A DNA stretch of 64,000 nt from Bacteroidota bacterium (lineage in GTDB: Bacteria; Bacteroidota; Ignavibacteria; UBA10030): contig DATDRF010000297.1 of assembly GCA_035291905.1 (NCBI GenBank), positions 14 to 64,013 of the forward strand. Reading direction: 5' to 3'. Below the pieces are notes generated by a model. That model ran no database searches, was not told where the DNA came from, and was given only the letters and a program-made list of their open reading frames with translations. A program made the position numbers and the translations under genes. Shown here in pieces: positions 20,287-32,968 of this stretch (positions are counted from its first letter, which is position 1; every line of letters begins with the position of its first letter).

Positions 20287-21243
20287 CTATTGATTCGAGG
20301 ATTTGAGCTGCTGATGGGTCTCGTCGTGTTGTTCGACCGGCTCGAGGTGGGTGATAATATTGACCGACCCTGAGACAGAAGCCGTGATGGCCGCCTCAAT
20401 TTCCGTTGCCTTCCAGTGAGCATCTTCGATGGTTGTTCCGTTCGGAAAGAGAAGATGAAACTCCACCCACAGCGATGTCCCGGTATTCCGATAGCGTACC
20501 TCATGATAGACAAGGCCGCGTTTAGCCGTTTCGCTGTCAAGAACCTGCTTGATTCGGGATTCAACTTTCGGATTAGCCTCATCCATCAGTCCGCCAACTG
20601 ATTGCCTCACGAGTTTTCCCCCAGACCAGAGGATATTAAGAGCGACCGCGACGGCAATAAGCGGGTCAAAGGGAAGCCAGCTGGTCCAGAGTACAAGGAG
20701 CAGCGCAAGAATGACCGCGAGGCTCGTCCATGCGTCGGTTAGGACGTGTTTGCCGTTGGCGATCAATATGAGGGACCCGGTGCGCTTTCCCTGCCACACC
20801 AGATATGCCCCCAGGCCTGCGTTGATAGCAGCGGCCCCCGCAACAAAGAGAGTTCCCTCCCCAATGTTTTCCAGGACCAACCCAGCGATCCATTTTCGTA
20901 CTGCTTCATAGATAATGACGACAGCCGCAAGAATGATCATCGATCCTTCGAACCCGGCCGAGAAGAACGCAATCCGGTCATGTCCGTAAGGATGGCTCTC
21001 GTCTGCAGGTTTGAAACTGAGCCACATGCTGTATGCAGCAAATGCGACGGCAATGATGTGGACAACCGATTCGGCGGCATCGGAGAGAATGGCGGCGGAC
21101 CCGGTTCGGTGATACGCATACCATTTTCCCGCCAGCATCAGGAATCCGATAGCAAGGGAAAGATTGATGGCTAGCTGCTGGTGATGTACTTCTGGTCGTG
21201 CAGAATGAGGCGCGAGGGAATCCATTACACCTTGACAATCCAA
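20287..21243 (-). CDS. Cation diffusion facilitator (CDF) family metal efflux transporter
   Basis: Six TM helices with an HxxxD-like metal site (SDAAESVVH..., HPYGHDRIA) and a C-terminal cytoplasmic domain. Confidence 0.85.
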   Translation of the reverse strand: MDCQGVMDSLAPHSARPEVHHQQLAINLSLAIGFLMLAGKWYAYHRTGSAAILSDAAESVVHIIAVAFAAYSMWLSFKPADESHPYGHDRIAFFSAGFEGSMIILAAVVIIYEAVRKWIAGLVLENIGEGTLFVAGAAAINAGLGAYLVWQGKRTGSLILIANGKHVLTDAWTSLAVILALLLVLWTSWLPFDPLIAVAVALNILWSGGKLVRQSVGGLMDEANPKVESRIKQVLDSETAKRGLVYHEVRYRNTGTSLWVEFHLLFPNGTTIEDAHWKATEIEAAITASVSGSVNIITHLEPVEQHDETHQQLKSSNQ

Positions 21244-22382
21244 TTTCGTTTATACATCACGTATGCTATGCCGTACAGGACGAGAACATAGAATAACGAA
21301 TGGAGCAAGGAAGTGACCATGGGGGGCCCCAGGGGGAAAAAGAACGTCTGGTAGTACCAGCTCTTCAGGGAAATGAGACCTCCGGTGTCGGTGGAGAACT
21401 TTATCATCGCCGTCATCCGGCCGAAGAATCCCGCAAGGAAGAACATCGTGATCGCATTCAACCCATAGATTGCGAGAGGCTTTGACCACCGGTGTATCCC
21501 GCGGATATCGATCACCCAAAAGAGCACACCGAGGACGTTGTTGGCAAGTCCGGCCATAAAAATGGCGTATGAGCTGGTCCACAAGTTCTTATTGATCGGC
21601 AGCCAGTTATCCATGATGATGCCTGCGAGCATAAGGATGTTTCCGTACACAAACATGCGGATAAGCTTCTCCTCATGGCTTTTCTCCGAGCGCAGAAGTT
21701 GACCGGTAAGGACGCCGAACAATGTTGTTGCGACAGCAGGAAGAGTGCTGAAGATCCCCTCCGGATCGAATCCGGGGACAGGAGCTCCCGCCCACGTATG
21801 GCCGGCAAGAAGAGTCGAGTCCAGATACCAGCAGAGATTTCCGGTCGGCTCAAGAACGCCGGCGCCGTATCCGGGCACGGGAATGATGAGGACTGCAATC
21901 CAATACACCGCCAGAAATGACGCGGTAGCCCATGCCTGAGCCTTCCAACCGGTGTTCAGGACGATGAGGCCGCTGATGAGATAACAAACAGCGATGCGTT
22001 GCAGGACGCCTGGGATACGAATGGTCGAAAATGAGAATTGGTGGCCGAACAACAGCCCGAACGGGACGCCGCTCAGGAAGAGGCCGACAAGAAAGATAAT
22101 CGCCGCCCGGCGAACCACATGCCATCCTAGTTTCCCCAGATCGTCTCCCTTCTCCTTTCGCTTCGCGAACGAGAAAGTCATGGCAACGCCGACTATCCAG
22201 AGGAAGAACGGAAAGATCGTATCAGTGTAGGTCCATCCGTTCCACGCAGCATGACCGAACGGGGGATAAATGTACTTCCAATCACCGGGATTGTTCACCA
22301 GCATCATGCCGGCAATGGTTGCACCGCGAAAAACATCAAGTGAGAGAAGTCGACCGGTTTTCTGAACGGATGGGATAGTCAT
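21225..22382 (-). CDS. Membrane acyltransferase, DUF5009 / HGSNAT-like
   Basis: LSLDVFRGATIAGMMLVNNPG N-terminal signature; multi-pass membrane protein. Confidence 0.5.
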   Translation of the reverse strand: MTIPSVQKTGRLLSLDVFRGATIAGMMLVNNPGDWKYIYPPFGHAAWNGWTYTDTIFPFFLWIVGVAMTFSFAKRKEKGDDLGKLGWHVVRRAAIIFLVGLFLSGVPFGLLFGHQFSFSTIRIPGVLQRIAVCYLISGLIVLNTGWKAQAWATASFLAVYWIAVLIIPVPGYGAGVLEPTGNLCWYLDSTLLAGHTWAGAPVPGFDPEGIFSTLPAVATTLFGVLTGQLLRSEKSHEEKLIRMFVYGNILMLAGIIMDNWLPINKNLWTSSYAIFMAGLANNVLGVLFWVIDIRGIHRWSKPLAIYGLNAITMFFLAGFFGRMTAMIKFSTDTGGLISLKSWYYQTFFFPLGPPMVTSLLHSLFYVLVLYGIAYVMYKRNWIVKV

Positions 22383-22592
22383 GGCAGGGTATGGGATGGA
22401 TGTGACTCAAGGTTCAGGCTGTTTTCATGCTATCCCCACGAAGTACCCGAACGAAAGAACACCACAAGAATCCAGCCTGCGAGGAGAGTCACAACAATGA
22501 GAATTCGTAACTTCTGATCTTCGGTGAGTTTCATCGCGGCATCAAGATAAAAACAATTGACGCGATATGCAAAGCCGCAGGCACCGAAGCAC

Positions 22593-24917
22593 TTATTCAA
22601 GCCGATCGAAGCTCAAATTCAAGATCGGATAGTCTCGCCAGTCCTTGTAATCAAAATGCCACCACTCGAATACGTAGACCCTGAATCCCTGCAGCTCCAT
22701 GGCACGTCTCAGTAATTCGCGGTTCCATCGTTCGAGTGTCGTGCCGCCGGGGTAATCCGGATATGCACGAACAGAGAACTCATCATACCCGCTGACCATT
22801 TCGGCCGGTTTTCCGGTTGCAAGGTCGTAGAGCGTAATATCGGCGGCGCATCCACGATTATGACGCGAACCCACTGATGGGTCGGCAACAAAATCGCGCT
22901 GATGGCGGGGAGTTGCATCCCAGAACATCTTTGTGACGTACCAAGGGCGATAGGCGTCGTGAACGAGAATACCATAGCCGAATTGCCGCAGCCATTGGTG
23001 TGCGCGAACAAGCGCCTCTGCTGCGGGCTCCTGCATGAACGCGCGGGATTCCGCGTAGAACTTCGACTTCATGAAATTATTCGTCGAGGCATAACGGATA
23101 TCAAGACGGATTGTGGAATCAAGCTTCACAAGCTCAGTGAGCTCCGGAGTCCGAAAATCTCCTCGCTCCTTCGGGGGGGAGGCGGCGAGAGCCTCCTTTC
23201 GCAGGAGATCGACGGGCCTCTGAGGAATAATGGTGAATGTATCTGAGCTGCCGGTTTGGCGGCGCCGAAACAACACCCCTGCAGCCAGGACCTCTTTGGC
23301 TGAACCGTCCGCCTGACGATTGAACCGAAGCTGCTCCCCGTGATAGAGTCCGAAATTGGGAAAGGCAAAAACGTCTGCTGAAATCTCCGTGAGCGGATAG
23401 GAAAAGTACCATTCTATCTGTGCATGCAACAGGCCATCGCGTTCATGAATGTAGAGCGTGTTATGGTCCCAGCCGTATTCCCCGATCAGCCCCTGCCATC
23501 GGTCCGGTATTGAGGCAGGCCGGGGGTCAGAGACGCGAAGTAACGTATCTCTCCCGACCACAACACCGTTGTGGATCGGTAAAACCGACAATCCGCGGGC
23601 GAGCTTATCGTCGACAATCAGCGTATTCCCGTGTTGACGAACCGCGAGTGTCGTTGTTCGTCCCTGCATGAGCAGCCTCTCTCCGCGCTCAAAGAATCTT
23701 ACGCCGTAGTCTTTGTTTGCATACTTTCCGGCGAGCTGCCTTCGGAGTTCGGGCTCAACTTCATTCGTAAGGGGGTACTCGGGCAAAGGCTTTCCGGAAG
23801 TACGGGCAAGCAACAGATTCAACGCATAGTCCGCTATTTCCGATGACCAGGCATTCGCCGCGTTCATCGTGTTAACCACAATGACACCTAGCTTCAAATC
23901 GGGCAGTGCGGCGAATTCCGTGGCAAAACCGTACACGTCACCGCTGTGGCTGATATGGCGGTGGTCTTCTTTCCTTCCGATAAAGAATCCCAGGCCGACT
24001 CCCGACTTCTGCCCGGGTGGGGCGAATTGCGGCTGCCACATTGTCTCAAGGGTTTCCTGTTTCAACACCCGCCCGCGGCCGCCCATGCCGCCATTGAACA
24101 ATGTGACCATGAATGCAGCCAAATCCTCCAGTGTGGAGTGCATGTTGATGGCGGGAGCCATTCCAAACTGAAACGTCGGGGCATCGAATGTCCTACCGTC
24201 GTATGTCCACATGAACGCACGCGGTCTTCGTTTGAGCAGATCCGGCTTCGCTTCGAATGAGCTGTTGGTCATTCCCATCGGGAGGAAGAGGTTTTCTTCG
24301 ATCACGCGGTAGAACGGCTGGTGAAGCGCTTCTCCAAGTGCGGCGCCGACAACGGCAACACCTGCATTGGAATATTTGATTCTCGTCTCGGGAGAATAGA
24401 CGAGCGTGGTGTTGTTGAGGCTGGCAACCGTCTGTTCAAGAGAGGGCTCGGTTGGATCGAAGTAGTTGCCGGAAGGAGGTTCCCTTACCAGGCCCGCCCG
24501 GTGGGACATGAGCTGACGCAGTGTGATCTTCTTATCAAAGGGATTGCGGGGTTGAAAATTGGGAAGATATGCGGTAATCGGGGCGTCAAGATCGAGAACT
24601 CCCCGTTCAACCTGCTGCATGACGGCCACGTCAGTGAAGAGCTTGGAGACAGATGCAATGCGTAGAACATCTCTCGTTGTTGCAGGGATCTTCCGATCCG
24701 GGTCGGCATACCCGAATGCTTGTGACCAGAGGATGACATCCTTTTCAATCAGTGCAATGTAAACAGACGGGAGCTGCTTCTGCGCGATTTCATGCCTGAT
24801 GACCTTCGTGAGGGCAGATGAGATTGCTTCAACCGATTGCCGGCTCAGCAGAGGCTGAAGAAAAAGTACTCCAACGAACAGCAGGTGTGCCACATGACGC
24901 GGTTTCATTCCGATCAT
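22593..24917 (-). CDS. Secreted fusion protein: serine beta-lactamase / DD-peptidase-like domain fused to a C-terminal VanX/DdpX-type D-Ala-D-Ala dipeptidase (M15D)
   Basis: Signal peptide. SxxK motif ASVSKLF in the N-terminal half. The C-terminal SRHNRGCAADITLY ... EWWHFDY is closely similar to VanX SRHSRGSAIDLTLY ... EWWHY. Confidence 0.8.
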   Translation of the reverse strand: MIGMKPRHVAHLLFVGVLFLQPLLSRQSVEAISSALTKVIRHEIAQKQLPSVYIALIEKDVILWSQAFGYADPDRKIPATTRDVLRIASVSKLFTDVAVMQQVERGVLDLDAPITAYLPNFQPRNPFDKKITLRQLMSHRAGLVREPPSGNYFDPTEPSLEQTVASLNNTTLVYSPETRIKYSNAGVAVVGAALGEALHQPFYRVIEENLFLPMGMTNSSFEAKPDLLKRRPRAFMWTYDGRTFDAPTFQFGMAPAINMHSTLEDLAAFMVTLFNGGMGGRGRVLKQETLETMWQPQFAPPGQKSGVGLGFFIGRKEDHRHISHSGDVYGFATEFAALPDLKLGVIVVNTMNAANAWSSEIADYALNLLLARTSGKPLPEYPLTNEVEPELRRQLAGKYANKDYGVRFFERGERLLMQGRTTTLAVRQHGNTLIVDDKLARGLSVLPIHNGVVVGRDTLLRVSDPRPASIPDRWQGLIGEYGWDHNTLYIHERDGLLHAQIEWYFSYPLTEISADVFAFPNFGLYHGEQLRFNRQADGSAKEVLAAGVLFRRRQTGSSDTFTIIPQRPVDLLRKEALAASPPKERGDFRTPELTELVKLDSTIRLDIRYASTNNFMKSKFYAESRAFMQEPAAEALVRAHQWLRQFGYGILVHDAYRPWYVTKMFWDATPRHQRDFVADPSVGSRHNRGCAADITLYDLATGKPAEMVSGYDEFSVRAYPDYPGGTTLERWNRELLRRAMELQGFRVYVFEWWHFDYKDWRDYPILNLSFDRLE

Positions 24918-25092
24918 CCGAGGTCTCCTTCAGGCTTTATGCGATGGTGTATCTACCGTCTTTGCCAAAGGGAAGATAGCAAGCGGGAATATAAGAACCA
25001 AAAATCGTTTCAGAATGGCATGAGAAAAAGATGGCGCTATGTGGCAAAAGAATTTCCTGCTATATTTGAGTCGCAAGCGGAGAATATCGGCT

Positions 25093-27746: not shown

Positions 27747-29900
27747 TCAGACCATTGCGAATCGCTTACGGAGAAACCACTCAATCGCAAACAGCACGAG
27801 CAGAAAAACCATGCTCCATTGGGCATTCCACAATTCAATCTCCGAAGATCGAACAATCTCCCGGCTCCGAAATCCCGGCGTTGACTGGATTGCTTCGGGC
27901 AGGCGATTGAGTTGGCCCGGTTCGATGTGCATGCCACCGCTCAGCGCTGCGAGCTGCCGAAGGACCAGCGGGCGGGCACTCGTCTCAAGAAACTCGACAG
28001 CAACGTCTCCAACCGAAAATGAACCGGCGTCCCTGCCGAGGGTTGCTCCATTACGCTCAACGACAGCAGCGAAGGAATAATCACCGGCAGGCAGGTGGTC
28101 CCACCGTCCAACGTACTGGCCATTTCCAAGCGATGAGAGCTCAAGTTCCTCCTTTTGGCCGCCGCCCTGCACCGAGAGACTGACTCGGGCGTTGTCAACA
28201 GGTTGGAATGAATCATCATAGACCTGACCGACGAATTCTATCGGATCCCTGCTCGAGAAGAACTCAAGAGCGGGCGACACTCTTACCTTTCTGTCATCAT
28301 CCCTCGTTGTGAGCCATCGAATGCTGTTGCCGATGAATTCGTCAAGAGCATCATTCTGCTGTTTGCCGCCCAACAGTTTCCATCGCCAGAGGCCGTACGT
28401 CATGGCGGCAAGCGATTTCCGCCCGGCGGCGCTGCGTATGGAGACGGCAGGGAAATTAGTTGTGATATTCTGTATTCGGGAAAAAGCGAGGACTTGCGCT
28501 TCGGGTTTCGCCCGCACCTCATGTTGTTGTTGAAAAACAGGCGGAAGTGACGGCCAGAGATCATCTGCCGGCACGCCGCTCCGAAGGATGACATGCCCTT
28601 TCTGGTTCTCGGAAATCTGAAGAAAGCATTGGACCTCATTGGGAAGCCTCTCGCGCACCGTGACAGGAAGAACGGGTTCGAGCTCTGTCAGAAGCTGCAC
28701 ATCGAGCAGCCGGCCCGCGAGGAAGAAGATCGGGAGTCCATTTCGGGCCGCCTCGACAATGATTCTCAGATTGGCAGGGGAAGTTCCTGAACGCGGAATT
28801 CCAAGAAGGACAAGACAATCCTGATCCTTGAGAGTCTGAGCGTTGAACGGCAGAGGCCGGATGTCACCGTTTTTTTGTTCGATCAGGGTTGTGACCTCCA
28901 GGTTGGGGTCGCGTTCCAGGGTTCGCCTGAAGAACGCAAGATCTGCACTTGGCCCGCCTGCGAGGATGGCAATTTTCATCCTGCTTTTCATCACCTTGGT
29001 GAAGAATGTCGCGCGGTTGTTCCGATCCGTAAGCTCATCGGGAAGGCTGGAGACCGCAACCCAAAGCCGCTGCATGCCGGGTTTTTCAGGAATGAAGCTC
29101 AGGCTCACCGGGTACTCGCGCTCCCCGCCCTCCAGAGTGAGAAATTGTCGGTCGATCACCTTCGATGAATCACGCAATGTGATCTCCACGCGCTGGCCGC
29201 CATATCCGGTGCTTTTGATCGCGACGTTTACGGGGACGCGCGTACCGGCATACGTGAGTGTATTTGTCAACACGGTGCGGACCAGAAGATCACGCTGCCC
29301 CGTAGTGTCGCCAACGGCGATGGTGAAGAGCGGAATCCCGAGGTCACCCGCCTCAAACAGGGGACTTGAGCCTGACGTGTTATTCCCATCTGAGATAATC
29401 AAGGCGCTTCGAATATTGCTTTTTCGGGCTTCCTCTCTGACCTGTTTGAGAGCAAGCGAGAGATCCGTTGCATCGCCGTTGAACGTCAGCGAGTCATAGG
29501 CGAAGGTTGAGAACATGCGCGCCTTTGAATCGAATGAGGCAAAACGGACTTCGCCGATTTCAGCAAGCCGGCGGATCTCATTGGACGCGAGAAGAGAACG
29601 GATCTCGTCCGAGCGAACTTTTTCCTTATCCGTGATGGTCATGCTCCGCGAGTTGTCGATAAGCACGAGAATCTGAGGGGGCTCATCCGTTCGCGAGAGA
29701 AGGGAGAGCAACGGTTCAGCAATAAGGAGGATGAGAAAGAATAGTCCGACAGCCCGAAGTGTTGCGAGAAGAAAGCGAATTCGGCCGGGGATCGGCGGAA
29801 TGGTCATGCGGTAGACAAAAAAAGAGAGGGCGATTGAAAGGAGTGCCGCGAGAAGAAGAACGAAGGTGCTAAGAGAGATGGAAAGGGAGAACTCTGGCAT
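27747..29900 (-). CDS. BatA-like membrane protein with vWA domain and a long C-terminal extension (717 aa)
   Basis: Two N-terminal TM helices, then vWA MIDAS DxSxS (LIDNSRSM). The C-terminal half is uncharacterised. Confidence 0.55.
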   Translation of the reverse strand: MPEFSLSISLSTFVLLLAALLSIALSFFVYRMTIPPIPGRIRFLLATLRAVGLFFLILLIAEPLLSLLSRTDEPPQILVLIDNSRSMTITDKEKVRSDEIRSLLASNEIRRLAEIGEVRFASFDSKARMFSTFAYDSLTFNGDATDLSLALKQVREEARKSNIRSALIISDGNNTSGSSPLFEAGDLGIPLFTIAVGDTTGQRDLLVRTVLTNTLTYAGTRVPVNVAIKSTGYGGQRVEITLRDSSKVIDRQFLTLEGGEREYPVSLSFIPEKPGMQRLWVAVSSLPDELTDRNNRATFFTKVMKSRMKIAILAGGPSADLAFFRRTLERDPNLEVTTLIEQKNGDIRPLPFNAQTLKDQDCLVLLGIPRSGTSPANLRIIVEAARNGLPIFFLAGRLLDVQLLTELEPVLPVTVRERLPNEVQCFLQISENQKGHVILRSGVPADDLWPSLPPVFQQQHEVRAKPEAQVLAFSRIQNITTNFPAVSIRSAAGRKSLAAMTYGLWRWKLLGGKQQNDALDEFIGNSIRWLTTRDDDRKVRVSPALEFFSSRDPIEFVGQVYDDSFQPVDNARVSLSVQGGGQKEELELSSLGNGQYVGRWDHLPAGDYSFAAVVERNGATLGRDAGSFSVGDVAVEFLETSARPLVLRQLAALSGGMHIEPGQLNRLPEAIQSTPGFRSREIVRSSEIELWNAQWSMVFLLVLFAIEWFLRKRFAMV

Positions 29901-29930: not shown

Positions 29931-31982
29931 CTATCTGGTCATCACCATCTTGTTTGTGATAACCGACGCGGGTGTGCGAAGTTGGAAGAAATAAACGCCG
30001 GTGGAGGCGTTGCGGCCTGCGTCGTCTTTCCCGTCCCACCGGACAGTATTGCGGCCCGGAATCGAGGTTCCGGAAAAAAGCGTCCGAATCTTCTGCCCCA
30101 GAATATTGAAAACGACTACCTCGACTTTTTGAGCGCCCGGAGCATCGAATGTGATGCTGGTGCCGCTGTTGAAAGGATTCGGGAAATTCGCATTCAGCAC
30201 AAAGTTTTCCGGAATTTCATTGACGCCGGGAACATAGCTGACAATGTATTGTTGGAACTTAAAAGTGCTGTCAGGCGCACTGAAGGGCCAAGATCGGGTC
30301 CTCCCTCCATTATCCCGCGCGGAAAAGTATCCTCGGGGATACGTTGAATCGGTGCCGAGAGGCACTTCCGCGGTGAATACCGAAGGGGCTTGTGTCGGGG
30401 TCAACGGCACCCGTTGGAGCATCTCGGCAGGTGATCCCTGGAAGTAGAGAAAAAGGGAATCGCTCATTAATGCGGTATTTGAAGCGATCGAGATGTAGAC
30501 GGTCAACGTGGAATCCGTCAGAGTCACCATCGGTTTGTTGCTGAATGCGATGCCGTGATAGGTGACCGCAGCGAGGGCATTGACCATACCGTGGCCATAG
30601 AAATTGTTTGGCCACGTGGCAGTTCGCGAAGGGTCATCGGTATCATTATAGTGCGTTGCAGTTTGAATGAGGGCTTCGCGAACCTGCATTGGCGTAAGTT
30701 GAGGATGTGCGGACAGCACAAGGGCGGCCACGCCGGCAACCAATGGCGTGGAAAGCGAGGTGCCACCGACGGACGCATAGCCGGCAGTCGTGGCTCCGTA
30801 GGCAGAAACAACGCTCACGCCTTGTGCAACCACCTCCGGTTTGATCCTTCCGTCAAAGGTGGGGCCCGTTGAACTAAAGCCGGCTATTTCTCCAAAGGAA
30901 TGTACAGCCCCCACAGCAACAATGCTGTCGGCATCTGCAGGAGCAATCAGAGTGCCCGTGAGACCCGGCGCCCGGTTCCAGCCTTCATTCCCCATCGCAG
31001 TAACGAGAAGCACTCCCTTTCGCATCGCGATCAAGGCGGCTTTGGTGGTAACCGCTGTTTGGCCGTCGAGAGAATCGTAAGTGTACCAATCGATATACCC
31101 CAGCGAAGAGGAGACCAGATCCGCGCCGCTTTGTTCAAGCCATTCCAGGCCCTGAACGTAGTAATCCTCTTCGACCGGCGTCTCTGATCCGATGACCTCT
31201 GTCTTGGCGAGAAGGAACGATGCGCCGTAAGCCGGTCCAATCAGCGTATCTTCCTTGAATCCGGACAACGCCGAGTACGTAAACATCCCATGATCCCCCT
31301 GCCCGGGAACATCTCCTGATTGGATCGACGTATTCGAGTCTCCCTGGATAAAATCATACTCTGCCAGAACGTTGTTGTTCCTTGTTGCCGCGTGGACCCG
31401 ATGGTTATTGTAGCCGTCATCGACCATGCCGACAATAGTGCCGAACCCGTTGATCGAGAGATCGTGAACCGAAGGAACCTGTATATTTGCCAGCTGGGTC
31501 AGGGATAGCCCGTAGCTCAGCGTCGTTCCTGTCTGGGTCTTGCCGGCAATTGATTGTCGTGGAACCGGGTGAGGGTTGAGGGGTGGACGGCGAAAGAGGG
31601 CAACGGGACTGGCATCATGTACAAACGGCAGGGAACGGACCGCGGCAAGCTGCGAAGAAGAGCCCTTGACGGATACCGCGTTGAGCCATCGCGATACTGC
31701 CCGCACCTCAACGCCAAGCGCCCTCAGATTGTTGACATACTGCGGATTGACCGGAATATCGAGATTGTCGAGAATGTCATGTGCAGCCAGCACCTTTGAA
31801 CGTCGCCAAAGAGTGCGCGGGGAAATTCCAAGTTCTTGTGCGTCGGATGCTTGTATCCCGTAGGCGGGTTTGTCTCGAAAAAAAATCCATATTGCGCGGT
31901 TGCCTTCTGTCTGAGCAGCAAGCGTTTCAAAAAGGAAGACGCAAAGCAGAATGGCTCGTGACAATCGCATAGGAGAGCGCAA
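29931..31982 (-). CDS. S8 family subtilisin-like peptidase with T9SS C-terminal sorting domain
   Basis: Asp/His/Ser triad motifs (VGMVDDGY, HGMFTYS-region, GTSLSTPLVAG). C-terminal about 80 aa beta-sandwich ending ...GVYFFQLRTPASVITNKMVMTR, typical of the T9SS CTD. Confidence 0.85.
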   Translation of the reverse strand: MRSPMRLSRAILLCVFLFETLAAQTEGNRAIWIFFRDKPAYGIQASDAQELGISPRTLWRRSKVLAAHDILDNLDIPVNPQYVNNLRALGVEVRAVSRWLNAVSVKGSSSQLAAVRSLPFVHDASPVALFRRPPLNPHPVPRQSIAGKTQTGTTLSYGLSLTQLANIQVPSVHDLSINGFGTIVGMVDDGYNNHRVHAATRNNNVLAEYDFIQGDSNTSIQSGDVPGQGDHGMFTYSALSGFKEDTLIGPAYGASFLLAKTEVIGSETPVEEDYYVQGLEWLEQSGADLVSSSLGYIDWYTYDSLDGQTAVTTKAALIAMRKGVLLVTAMGNEGWNRAPGLTGTLIAPADADSIVAVGAVHSFGEIAGFSSTGPTFDGRIKPEVVAQGVSVVSAYGATTAGYASVGGTSLSTPLVAGVAALVLSAHPQLTPMQVREALIQTATHYNDTDDPSRTATWPNNFYGHGMVNALAAVTYHGIAFSNKPMVTLTDSTLTVYISIASNTALMSDSLFLYFQGSPAEMLQRVPLTPTQAPSVFTAEVPLGTDSTYPRGYFSARDNGGRTRSWPFSAPDSTFKFQQYIVSYVPGVNEIPENFVLNANFPNPFNSGTSITFDAPGAQKVEVVVFNILGQKIRTLFSGTSIPGRNTVRWDGKDDAGRNASTGVYFFQLRTPASVITNKMVMTR

Positions 31983-31987
31983 ATCCT

Positions 31988-32968
31988 CTAATCGGTGTTT
32001 GTGAGAAGCTTCTCTACGACATTCATCGGCGATACACCTTCGGCAGCGGCGTTGAAGCTCAGAACGATCCTATGGCGAAGGACCGGGCCCGCAATTGCGC
32101 GGACATCGTCGATATCAGGATTATGTCGTCCGTGCAAAATTGCTCTTGTTTTTGCCCCAAGAATGAGGAACTGCGATGCTCGTGGTCCCGCACCCCAGCG
32201 AATCCAGTTCTTGACGAATCCGGGCGCCTGCGGAGACTGGGGCCGGGTCCGGCTTACAAGATCGACGGCGAATTTAACCACATTATCGGCAACCGGAACT
32301 TTTCGAATAAGATCCTGGAACCCAATGATATCCCGCCCGCTTAAAATGTGCTGAAGGGAAGGCTGATACGGGCTGGTCGTTGCCTTGACGATCTCTTCTT
32401 CTTCTTCGAACGAAGGGTAGTCGAGCCAGAGATTGAACATGAACCGGTCAAGCTGAGCTTCAGGAAGGGGGTAGGTACCCTCCTGCTCAATGGGGTTCTG
32501 AGTCGCCAGTACAAAGAAGGGCTCTTCGAGCCGGTAGGTTTGTCCTGCCGCGGTAACGTGATGCTCCTGCATTGCTTCCAGCAGGGCCGCCTGGGTTTTG
32601 GGCGGCGTGCGGTTGATTTCGTCCGCCAGGATTATGTTTGCAAAGATCGGTCCGTGCACGAACTTGAAACTCTTCTGGCCTGAAGAGACATTCTCCTCGA
32701 TAATCTCGGTACCCGTGATATCGCTCGGCATAAGATCGGGCGTGAACTGAATGCGGCTGAACTTCAGGTCAAGTGCCTCAGCGAGGGTCTTGATGAGCAA
32801 TGTCTTTGCCAATCCGGGAACACCGACGAGAAGACAATGACCGCGCGCCAGTAGGGTGATCAGAAGCTGTTCAATAATAAGCTCTTGACCGACTATAACC
32901 TTGGCGATTTCCTTCTTTATATCTGCATATCCCCCGGTGAGGAGTCGGGCAGATTCGACGTCATTCAT
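31988..32968 (-). CDS. MoxR-family AAA+ ATPase
   Basis: Walker A GVPGLAKT. Walker B ILADEINR. The C-terminal region is typical of MoxR. Confidence 0.9.
   Translation of the reverse strand: MNDVESARLLTGGYADIKKEIAKVIVGQELIIEQLLITLLARGHCLLVGVPGLAKTLLIKTLAEALDLKFSRIQFTPDLMPSDITGTEIIEENVSSGQKSFKFVHGPIFANIILADEINRTPPKTQAALLEAMQEHHVTAAGQTYRLEEPFFVLATQNPIEQEGTYPLPEAQLDRFMFNLWLDYPSFEEEEEIVKATTSPYQPSLQHILSGRDIIGFQDLIRKVPVADNVVKFAVDLVSRTRPQSPQAPGFVKNWIRWGAGPRASQFLILGAKTRAILHGRHNPDIDDVRAIAGPVLRHRIVLSFNAAAEGVSPMNVVEKLLTNTD

Follow-up and report, generated by a model that had tools for sequence, protein, structure and literature searches.

The gene described here lies on the minus strand of a 64,000-nucleotide stretch of DNA (hereafter the window) from a Bacteroidota bacterium (Ignavibacteria, UBA10030; contig DATDRF010000297.1). 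It encodes a single protein in which a serine hydrolase of the penicillin-recognising type (MEROPS family S12) is joined to a C-terminal zinc D-Ala-D-Ala dipeptidase domain of family M15D (Table 1). A preliminary reading made from the DNA alone (the sequence-only reading) had described the locus as one secreted protein of 774 amino acids (aa) combining an SxxK hydrolase with a VanX-type dipeptidase. This description was confirmed: the open reading frame (ORF) is present on the minus strand, and the translation matches PF00144 (E = 4.1e-64) and PF01427 (E = 6.3e-31) with both sets of catalytic residues intact. The same reading had asked whether an undetected stop might divide the region into two genes. 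This is ruled out, as the translation contains no in-frame stop and the same contiguous ORF was found in 78 of 83 related loci, of which 77 came from a genome scan. A database entry (P0001, on three metagenome contigs) is the same protein but for one residue (R737K). A scan for promoters and terminators gave nothing above the expectation from shuffled sequence.

The N-terminus (MIGMKPRHVAHLLFVGVLFLQPLLSRQSVEA) follows the n-h-c scheme of a Sec signal peptide: its n-region carries positive charge, its core is hydrophobic, and confidence in the structural model is low there. The cleavage site is predicted to lie near residue 31. A hydrophobic N-terminal 10-mer occurs in 92 of 93 homologues, and one carries a lipobox. 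Given this layout and its persistence across the homologues, the family is predicted to be exported, with the periplasm as the expected destination, in agreement with the secreted location first suggested.

Domain organization and conservation of active sites

The S12 assignment is supported by profile, motifs and fold. PF00144 matched residues 37–348 with 217 bits (cut-off 27), and the three S12 motifs (SxxK, YxN and H/KxG) are present as SVSK within ASVSKLF (residues 88–94), YSN in the context KYSNAG, and HSG. Among 93–120 homologues, the residues of these motifs are either invariant or conserved to 90% or more. By sequence, the top match in the PDB was Pab87 (2qmi, E = 5e-26), and by structure the AlphaFold2 model matched many S12 enzymes in Foldseek (E of 1e-19 to 1e-26), with Lip3, DAP, Pab87, LACTB, ClbP and R61 among the matches of the whole model. 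On more specific models the scores lay below the cut-offs. The domain scored 61 bits on the NCBIfam model for class C beta-lactamases, which has a cut-off of 415, and it lacks their KTG motif III; its HSG is, as judged from the motif, of the DD-peptidase/Pab87 type. The second-best NCBIfam match of the N-terminal domain was AmpH (NF007943, residues 44–364), at 92.6 bits against a cut-off of 266. The CubicO-specific motifs YAEAF/L, FFYLN and C-terminal ERY were not noticed on reading the translation, no string search for them having been run.

The C-terminal assignment is also well supported. PF01427 matched residues 593–759 with 108 bits (cut-off 27), and VanX (PDB 1r44) aligned to residues 600–768 with E-values of 5e-18 to 8e-20, so that a concern raised by the sequence-only reading, that profile searches might fail to support an M15D domain here, did not materialize. 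The zinc ligands in the order H-x6-D...H, the glutamate of the ExxH motif and the transition-state arginine are all present. Of the motifs quoted beforehand, ASVSKLF, SRHNRGCAADITLY (residues 684–697) and EWWHFDY (residues 751–757) are all found in the protein; the VanX segment set beside them reads SSHSRGSAIDLTLY, and the version beginning SRH was off by one residue. The domain is indeed C-terminal, and spans about 180 residues, not the 150 first estimated. In addition to the residues in Table 1, Y609, D654, S684 and D712 are invariant and align with Y21, D68, S114 and D142 of VanX, four residues that reportedly line its small dipeptide pocket. The equivalents of all nine VanX residues (Y21, D68, R71, S114, H116, D123, D142, E181 and H184) are thus invariant in 93 homologues, and the domain is predicted from this conservation to hydrolyse D-Ala-D-Ala. 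The best-scoring M15 model was that of DdpX (NF007557), at 126 bits and yet below its cut-off of 176, while the VanX model (NF033115) gave 79.6 bits against a cut-off of 320. As both catalytic sets are invariant across phyla, both domains must be under selection as enzymes.

Between these two domains lie some 200 residues that the original two-domain description had missed. They are conserved as strongly as the active sites and contain one of the best-conserved stretches of the whole protein, GLIGEYGWDH...IEW...FP..GLYHGE. Pfam has no family for this region, and a sequence comparison with the PDB gave no match even at an E-value of 10. Modelled alone, it nevertheless folded with a mean predicted local distance difference test score (pLDDT) of 84.8, and its best Foldseek match was to DAP (1ei5, E = 7.6e-7), followed by parts of IS11, Ulm16, SurE and Lip3, all of which are beta-barrel or lipocalin-like appendages. 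The region is best described as a DAP-like tandem beta-barrel module, and the possibility that it is a mere linker was rejected in view of its conservation at the level of the active sites and its confidently predicted fold. The second of its two beta modules carries an invariant block specific to the family (W474..G479-E-Y-G-W-D-H485..E492..I501-E-W503..F519-P..G523-L-Y-H-G-E528..F532).

A whole-protein AlphaFold2 model, built on 93 homologues, places the modules in the order signal peptide (disordered or helical), S12, two beta modules, a linker with one helix, and M15D. Its pLDDT of 91.8 and predicted template-modelling score of 0.88 point to a fixed arrangement of the domains with respect to each other. 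The top Foldseek matches of the whole model were Lip3 (9sn1, 611 aligned columns), IS11, DAP (561 columns) and Pab87. These matches, together with those of the middle region, show that the first ~560 residues have the three-domain architecture of DAP, in which S12 is followed by two beta-barrels. The likeness is one of layout, and does not extend to equivalence at the level of sequence: the NCBIfam D-aminopeptidase model (NF009622) gave 44 bits against a cut-off of 443.

Table 1. Positions of the fusion gene, its protein modules and its predicted catalytic residues in the window.
Feature	Residues (aa)	Position	Strand	Basis or remark
Whole gene	1–774	22593..24917	minus	774 codons and a stop codon; ATG start
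Shine-Dalgarno-like AAGGAGA		24924..24930	minus	6 nt upstream of the ATG; read from sequence
Sec-type signal peptide (predicted)	1 to ~31	24825..24917	minus	charged n-region, hydrophobic core, low pLDDT
S12 serine hydrolase (penicillin-recognising / DD-peptidase fold)	32–375	23793..24824	minus	PF00144, Foldseek, motifs
Motif I, S89-V-S-K92	89–92	24642-24653	minus	within ASVSKLF
Motif II, Y182-S-N184	182–184	24366-24374	minus	context KYSNAG
Motif III, H324-S-G326	324–326	23940-23948	minus	HSG, not KTG
Beta module 1, eight-stranded beta domain	385–462	23532..23765	minus	AlphaFold2, pLDDT >90
Beta module 2	472–552	23262..23504	minus	conservation, AlphaFold2 structure
Linker	553–589	23151..23261	minus	helix at 569–578; conserved PP(K/R)E motif
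M15D zinc D-Ala-D-Ala dipeptidase domain	590–774	22596..23150	minus	PF01427
R657	657	22947-22949	minus	aligns with VanX R71, transition-state Arg
H686	686	22860-22862	minus	Zn ligand; aligns with VanX H116
D693	693	22839-22841	minus	Zn ligand; aligns with VanX D123
E751-W-W-H754	751–754	22656-22667	minus	catalytic Glu and Zn ligand; VanX E181, H184

Distribution and architectural variants

The sequence-only reading had implied that the architecture is unusual. A count of genomes does not bear this out. All of the 120 best matches in a 5.8-billion-protein database carry both PF00144 and PF01427, and 4,555 of the 8,000 candidates scored from that database fell at E <1e-5. In a scan of one genome per GTDB species, relatives were confirmed in at least 594 genomes from at least eight phyla, and among the best 80 of these nearly all are full-length. 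Carriers include Acidobacteriota, Gemmatimonadota, Planctomycetota (with the cultured genera Singulisphaera, Tautonia and Stieleria), Ignavibacteria, KSB1, Verrucomicrobiota, Marinimicrobia and several families of Bacteroidota. The fusion is therefore common, in bacteria of soil and sediment. A tblastn search of 72,556 plasmid and chromid records found the fusion in none, with no full-length copy among them.

Members of the family are already labelled in databases, as 'CubicO group peptidase (beta-lactamase class C family)/D-alanyl-D-alanine dipeptidase' at JGI, where 'CubicO group peptidase' is only the name of a COG, and as 'serine hydrolase' at NCBI. A 2008 survey of S12 domain architectures lists no combination with M15. 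The catalytic domains and the beta-barrel appendages are of known kinds, and it is their combination that is widespread and uncharacterised.

Several variants of the architecture were found. Some proteins have a second S12 domain, either at the front (S12-S12-ββ-M15, ~1140 aa; P0034/P0131) or behind M15 together with DUF3471 (S12-ββ-M15-S12-DUF3471, 1250–1350 aa; P0020/P0022), and single examples carry an extra ceramidase-like or PHB-esterase-like domain (P0125, P0185), which could be real or could be artefacts of gene calling. A profile of the middle module, searched against 1.84 billion representatives, matched 704 clusters at E ≤1e-3, nearly all of which have the module in the same position in proteins of ~730–830 aa, or are fragments of these. 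Two cases, P0159 and one gene of Gemmatirosa, have beta module 2 directly before M15 and no S12 domain; the other beta-beta-M15 matches lacking S12 are mostly gene fragments or frameshifted calls, and only these two look genuine. The role of beta module 2 is probably to assist either the dipeptidase or the interface of the two enzymes.

The N-terminal unit also has relatives of its own. The plasmid search returned a set of matches (H1–H11) on chromids of Ensifer, Nitratireductor and Ochrobactrum, which are stand-alone 'serine hydrolases' of about 555 aa. These Rhizobiales proteins match residues 16–557 of the query at ~32% identity, and so comprise S12 and both beta modules without M15. They are likely to be DAP-like relatives of the ancestral N-terminal unit.

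Gene neighbourhood

The flanking ORFs of the 83 loci were clustered into families. Each neighbour family is confined to 10 loci or fewer. The four commonest make up a coherent set and are usually adjacent to the fusion gene and in the same direction: a PRK09061-type Amidohydro_3 enzyme, secreted and presumably D-aminoacylase-like (10 loci); an enolase-superfamily enzyme of the NSAR/OSBS clade (9 loci; 335 bits on TIGR01928, cut-off 200); an APC amino-acid permease (8 loci); and a GNAT protein (6 loci). At least one of GNAT, the NSAR/OSBS-type racemase, Amidohydro_3 and the permease is present in 19 of 78 loci, from four phyla, which is suggestive of an association with genes for the catabolism of D-amino acids or peptides. 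Four loci (L058 296..9622, L037, L032 and L071) hold operon-like arrays of permease, GNAT, racemase, Amidohydro_3 and fusion. In that of a Bryobacteraceae metagenome-assembled genome (MAG; L058) the order is permease, GNAT, racemase, amidohydrolase, fusion (with a 4-nt overlap) and an SSF symporter. In these arrays Amidohydro_3 stands in the place that an M20 desuccinylase occupies in the canonical pathway from D- to L-amino acids.

A split form of the fusion was found on plasmid 2 of Gemmatirosa kalamazoonensis (NZ_CP007130, 680829-689716; L087), where it is unannotated in PLSDB. It lies there in a cluster for peptide degradation, which reads S41 tricorn-like peptidase, S12-DUF3471, M19 dipeptidase, a protein with signal peptide, beta module 2 and M15, an unknown 443-aa ORF, and Amidohydro_3.

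In the loci inspected, none of the van genes (vanH, vanA, vanR, vanS) adjoins the fusion, no mur, fts, mrd or penicillin-binding protein gene lies beside it, and no biosynthetic gene cluster was seen in the neighbourhood. Local synteny is kept only in close relatives, and is lost in Acidobacteriota and Planctomycetota.

In the window itself, the neighbours are a divergent GH35 beta-galactosidase, an esterase, a 385-aa membrane protein, a CDF transporter, YceI and a glyoxalase; two neighbours in the window have no Pfam match. The multi-pass 385-aa membrane protein (21225..22382, minus strand) lies immediately downstream of the fusion, matches no Pfam family at E ≤1e-3, and is absent from the syntenic locus of a related Bacteroidota MAG (L004). 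The 210-nt gap downstream of the fusion contains a small ORF (~22429..22533, minus strand) for a hydrophobic peptide of 34 aa (MKLTEDQKLRILIVVTLLAGWILVVFFRSGTSWG), which overlaps a weak terminator-like hairpin (22482..22462) and may be a small membrane protein or a chance occurrence. Further away, a protein of 717 aa, which has a membrane segment at its N-terminus and matches no Pfam family, adjoins an S8 subtilase (27747..29900 and 29931..31982, minus strand). The subtilase carries FlgD_ig and a weak match to Por_Secre_tail, of the type associated with type IX secretion, which at 24 bits is below its threshold of 27. If genuine, this tail would assign the organism to the FCB group. These two genes and a MoxR-type AAA ATPase (31988..32968) form a trio that is syntenic in L004.

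Possible functions of the fusion

What might an exported protein with these two active sites do? We favour, at a probability of about one half, a periplasmic bifunctional D-peptidase for the salvage or catabolism of D-Ala-containing peptides. Its targets may chiefly be the stem peptides of peptidoglycan and free D-Ala-D-Ala, derived from turnover of the cell's own wall or from dead neighbours. For substrates and physiological role we infer a scheme of three steps, in which the two sites may work in series or in parallel. The N-terminal ~560 residues would form a DAP/Pab87-like unit in which the two beta-barrel accessory domains shape or gate the substrate site of S12, and which would act as a D-stereospecific serine peptidase (a DD-carboxypeptidase, DD-endopeptidase and/or D-aminopeptidase), removing D-Ala from stem peptides or D-Ala oligomers, or cutting within them. 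The M15D zinc site (H686, D693 and H754), with E751 as general base and R657, would hydrolyse D-Ala-D-Ala. Both activities would then yield free D-Ala for import and conversion to L-amino acids or pyruvate.

Relatives of both halves lend support to this salvage role. Pab87 has D-aminopeptidase and DD-carboxypeptidase activity on muropeptides and is proposed to process D-peptides from the environment (PMC2651629), and accessory domains build the substrate cavity both in Pab87 (PMC2651629) and in Lip3 (PMC12903863). For M15D, the periplasmic PcgL of Salmonella permits growth on D-Ala-D-Ala as sole carbon source (PMC3760250). The higher score of our M15D domain on the model of the nutritional DdpX than on that of VanX also supports salvage, as do the export signal, the invariance of both catalytic sets, the likeness of the middle module to the barrels of DAP, the catabolic and transport genes beside the fusion in 19 of 78 loci, and the peptide-degradation cluster of Gemmatirosa.

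A number of points weigh against it. The gene stands alone in the window and in most of the other loci, and none of the four associated neighbour families (GNAT, racemase, Amidohydro_3 and permease) is found in the window. The association as a whole covers about a quarter of the loci and, being a raw count, is suggestive. The neighbouring amidohydrolase appears to be secreted, which the canonical pathway does not explain. As the scores lie below every equivalog cut-off, the specificities may differ from those of DdpX, AmpH and D-aminopeptidase. In the PDB and the literature searched we found no characterised member, no solved structure, no assay and no paper on the fusion, in keeping with the sequence-only reading, which was not aware of a characterised example. 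Finally, sequential processing by the two halves, which that reading had put forward, is unproven. The product of a DD-carboxypeptidase is single D-Ala, whereas M15D would need D-Ala-D-Ala. No substrate is therefore obvious for a strict two-step relay, which would require a D-Ala oligomer or an unusual cleavage.

A more ambitious form of the salvage idea treats the four modules as one integrated machine. Here the invariant patch of beta module 2 would build a chamber or gate shared by the serine and zinc sites, and a D-peptide (a D-Ala oligomer, say, or a fragment of a stem peptide) cut by S12 would have its D,D-dipeptide passed on directly to M15D. We think it doubtful that the protein works in this way; if it did, it would be an undescribed channelled route for D-amino acids from peptidoglycan necromass in abundant phyla of soil and sediment.

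Three other explanations were weighed against salvage. One is housekeeping maturation of the cell wall, in which an AmpH-like S12 domain works on the cell's own sacculus, while M15D removes stray periplasmic D-Ala-D-Ala or trims stem peptides, in the service of remodelling rather than nutrition. The predicted periplasmic location, the HSG motif III as found in DD-peptidases (PMC2651629), the Foldseek match to the R61 DD-peptidase and the rank of AmpH among the NCBIfam matches (93 bits over residues 44–364) all speak for it. Nevertheless, the AmpH score is well under its cut-off of 266, the gene is never beside wall-synthesis or division genes of the kinds looked for (mur, fts, mrd, penicillin-binding proteins) in the loci inspected, and the genes that recur beside it are for catabolism or transport. 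Were it a core wall enzyme, a more universal occurrence would be expected, whereas the scan returned a limited set of phyla and none of the 72,556 plasmid and chromid records carries the fusion. We consider a housekeeping role unlikely. The other substrates that could be envisaged are natural products containing D-amino acids, such as lipopeptides and non-ribosomal peptides, which the enzyme would degrade or modify in the manner of Lip3/Lip7, TriF/BogQ or ClbP, with M15 clearing up D,D-dipeptides. The fold comparisons speak for this, as the top match of the whole model is the DL-peptidase Lip3 (9sn1), whose beta-rich C-terminal domain forms the substrate cavity (PMC12903863), and as SurE, Ulm16 and ClbP, which also matched by fold, process non-ribosomal peptides. 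The identity to Lip3 is only 19%, however, HSG is found where Lip3 has a catalytic lysine, the M15D domain has kept all of the VanX residues that accommodate D-Ala-D-Ala, and the neighbourhoods inspected hold no biosynthetic gene clusters. We therefore regard natural products as improbable targets.

The remaining explanation, suggested at the outset as a contribution to glycopeptide or beta-lactam tolerance, is that a beta-lactamase or penicillin sink has been fused to a VanX-like glycopeptide-resistance enzyme. Membership of both Pfam families and a weak likeness to many models of class C beta-lactamases speak for it. Several results speak against it: the scores on the class C and VanX models are 61 against 415 and 80 against 320 bits, motif III is HSG in place of KTG, vanH, vanA, vanR and vanS are absent from the vicinity of the gene in the inspected loci, and no plasmid record of the 72,556 holds the fusion. 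An exported enzyme could not reach the cytoplasmic pool of D-Ala-D-Ala that VanX depletes, and the hosts are diderm environmental bacteria. Resistance is thus poorly supported by the equivalog scores, motif, neighbours, plasmid search and export, and we judge it very improbable indeed.

The fusion is of interest beyond this locus. In soils, sediments and the ocean, peptidoglycan represents a large store of organic nitrogen and carbon, and its peptides with D-amino acids withstand ordinary proteases. Among the abundant but poorly characterised degraders are Acidobacteriota, Gemmatimonadota, Planctomycetota, Ignavibacteria and related groups, and the fusion is a concrete, testable candidate for the recovery of D-alanine from cell-wall debris by these bacteria. 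There are practical consequences as well: resistome screens that count PF00144 or VanX-like matches could mislabel the family as beta-lactamases or vancomycin resistance, and D-stereospecific peptidases are useful biocatalysts.

Comparison with known systems

The N-terminal unit can be compared with three characterised S12 enzymes. DAP from Ochrobactrum anthropi (1ei5, MEROPS S12) has, like the fusion, S12 followed by two beta-barrels and a motif III of the HxG type, but is a protein of 518 aa without M15 and is only ~17–19% identical. Pab87 from Pyrococcus abyssi (2qmi) is D-stereospecific and shares motifs of the types SxxK, YxN and HxG, and a beta-barrel of lipocalin type behind the catalytic domain (PMC2651629); it has one such barrel and no M15, and is a cytoplasmic octamer, unlike the exported fusion. 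Lip3 from Paenibacillus (9sn1), a secreted S12 enzyme, has an additional beta-rich domain that forms the cavity for its substrate (PMC12903863). It differs in its Ser-Lys-Tyr-Lys tetrad with a motif III lysine, in cleaving D-L bonds in lipopeptides, in having no M15, and in being restricted to relatives of Paenibacillus.

For the C-terminal domain, the comparison is with the M15D dipeptidases VanX (1r44), DdpX of E. coli and PcgL of Salmonella, which have in common with it the PF01427 fold, the zinc ligands, the catalytic glutamate, the arginine and the pocket residues. These are single-domain proteins of ~190–200 aa, whereas the M15D domain of the fusion forms the C-terminus of a 774-aa protein behind a dedicated beta module, and is without the ~14-residue insertion that VanX has after its DAYRP segment. 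VanX, which belongs to vanHAX operons, unlike the fusion at the loci inspected, is cytoplasmic, as is DdpX. PcgL is periplasmic and nutritional (PMC3760250), as we propose for the fusion.

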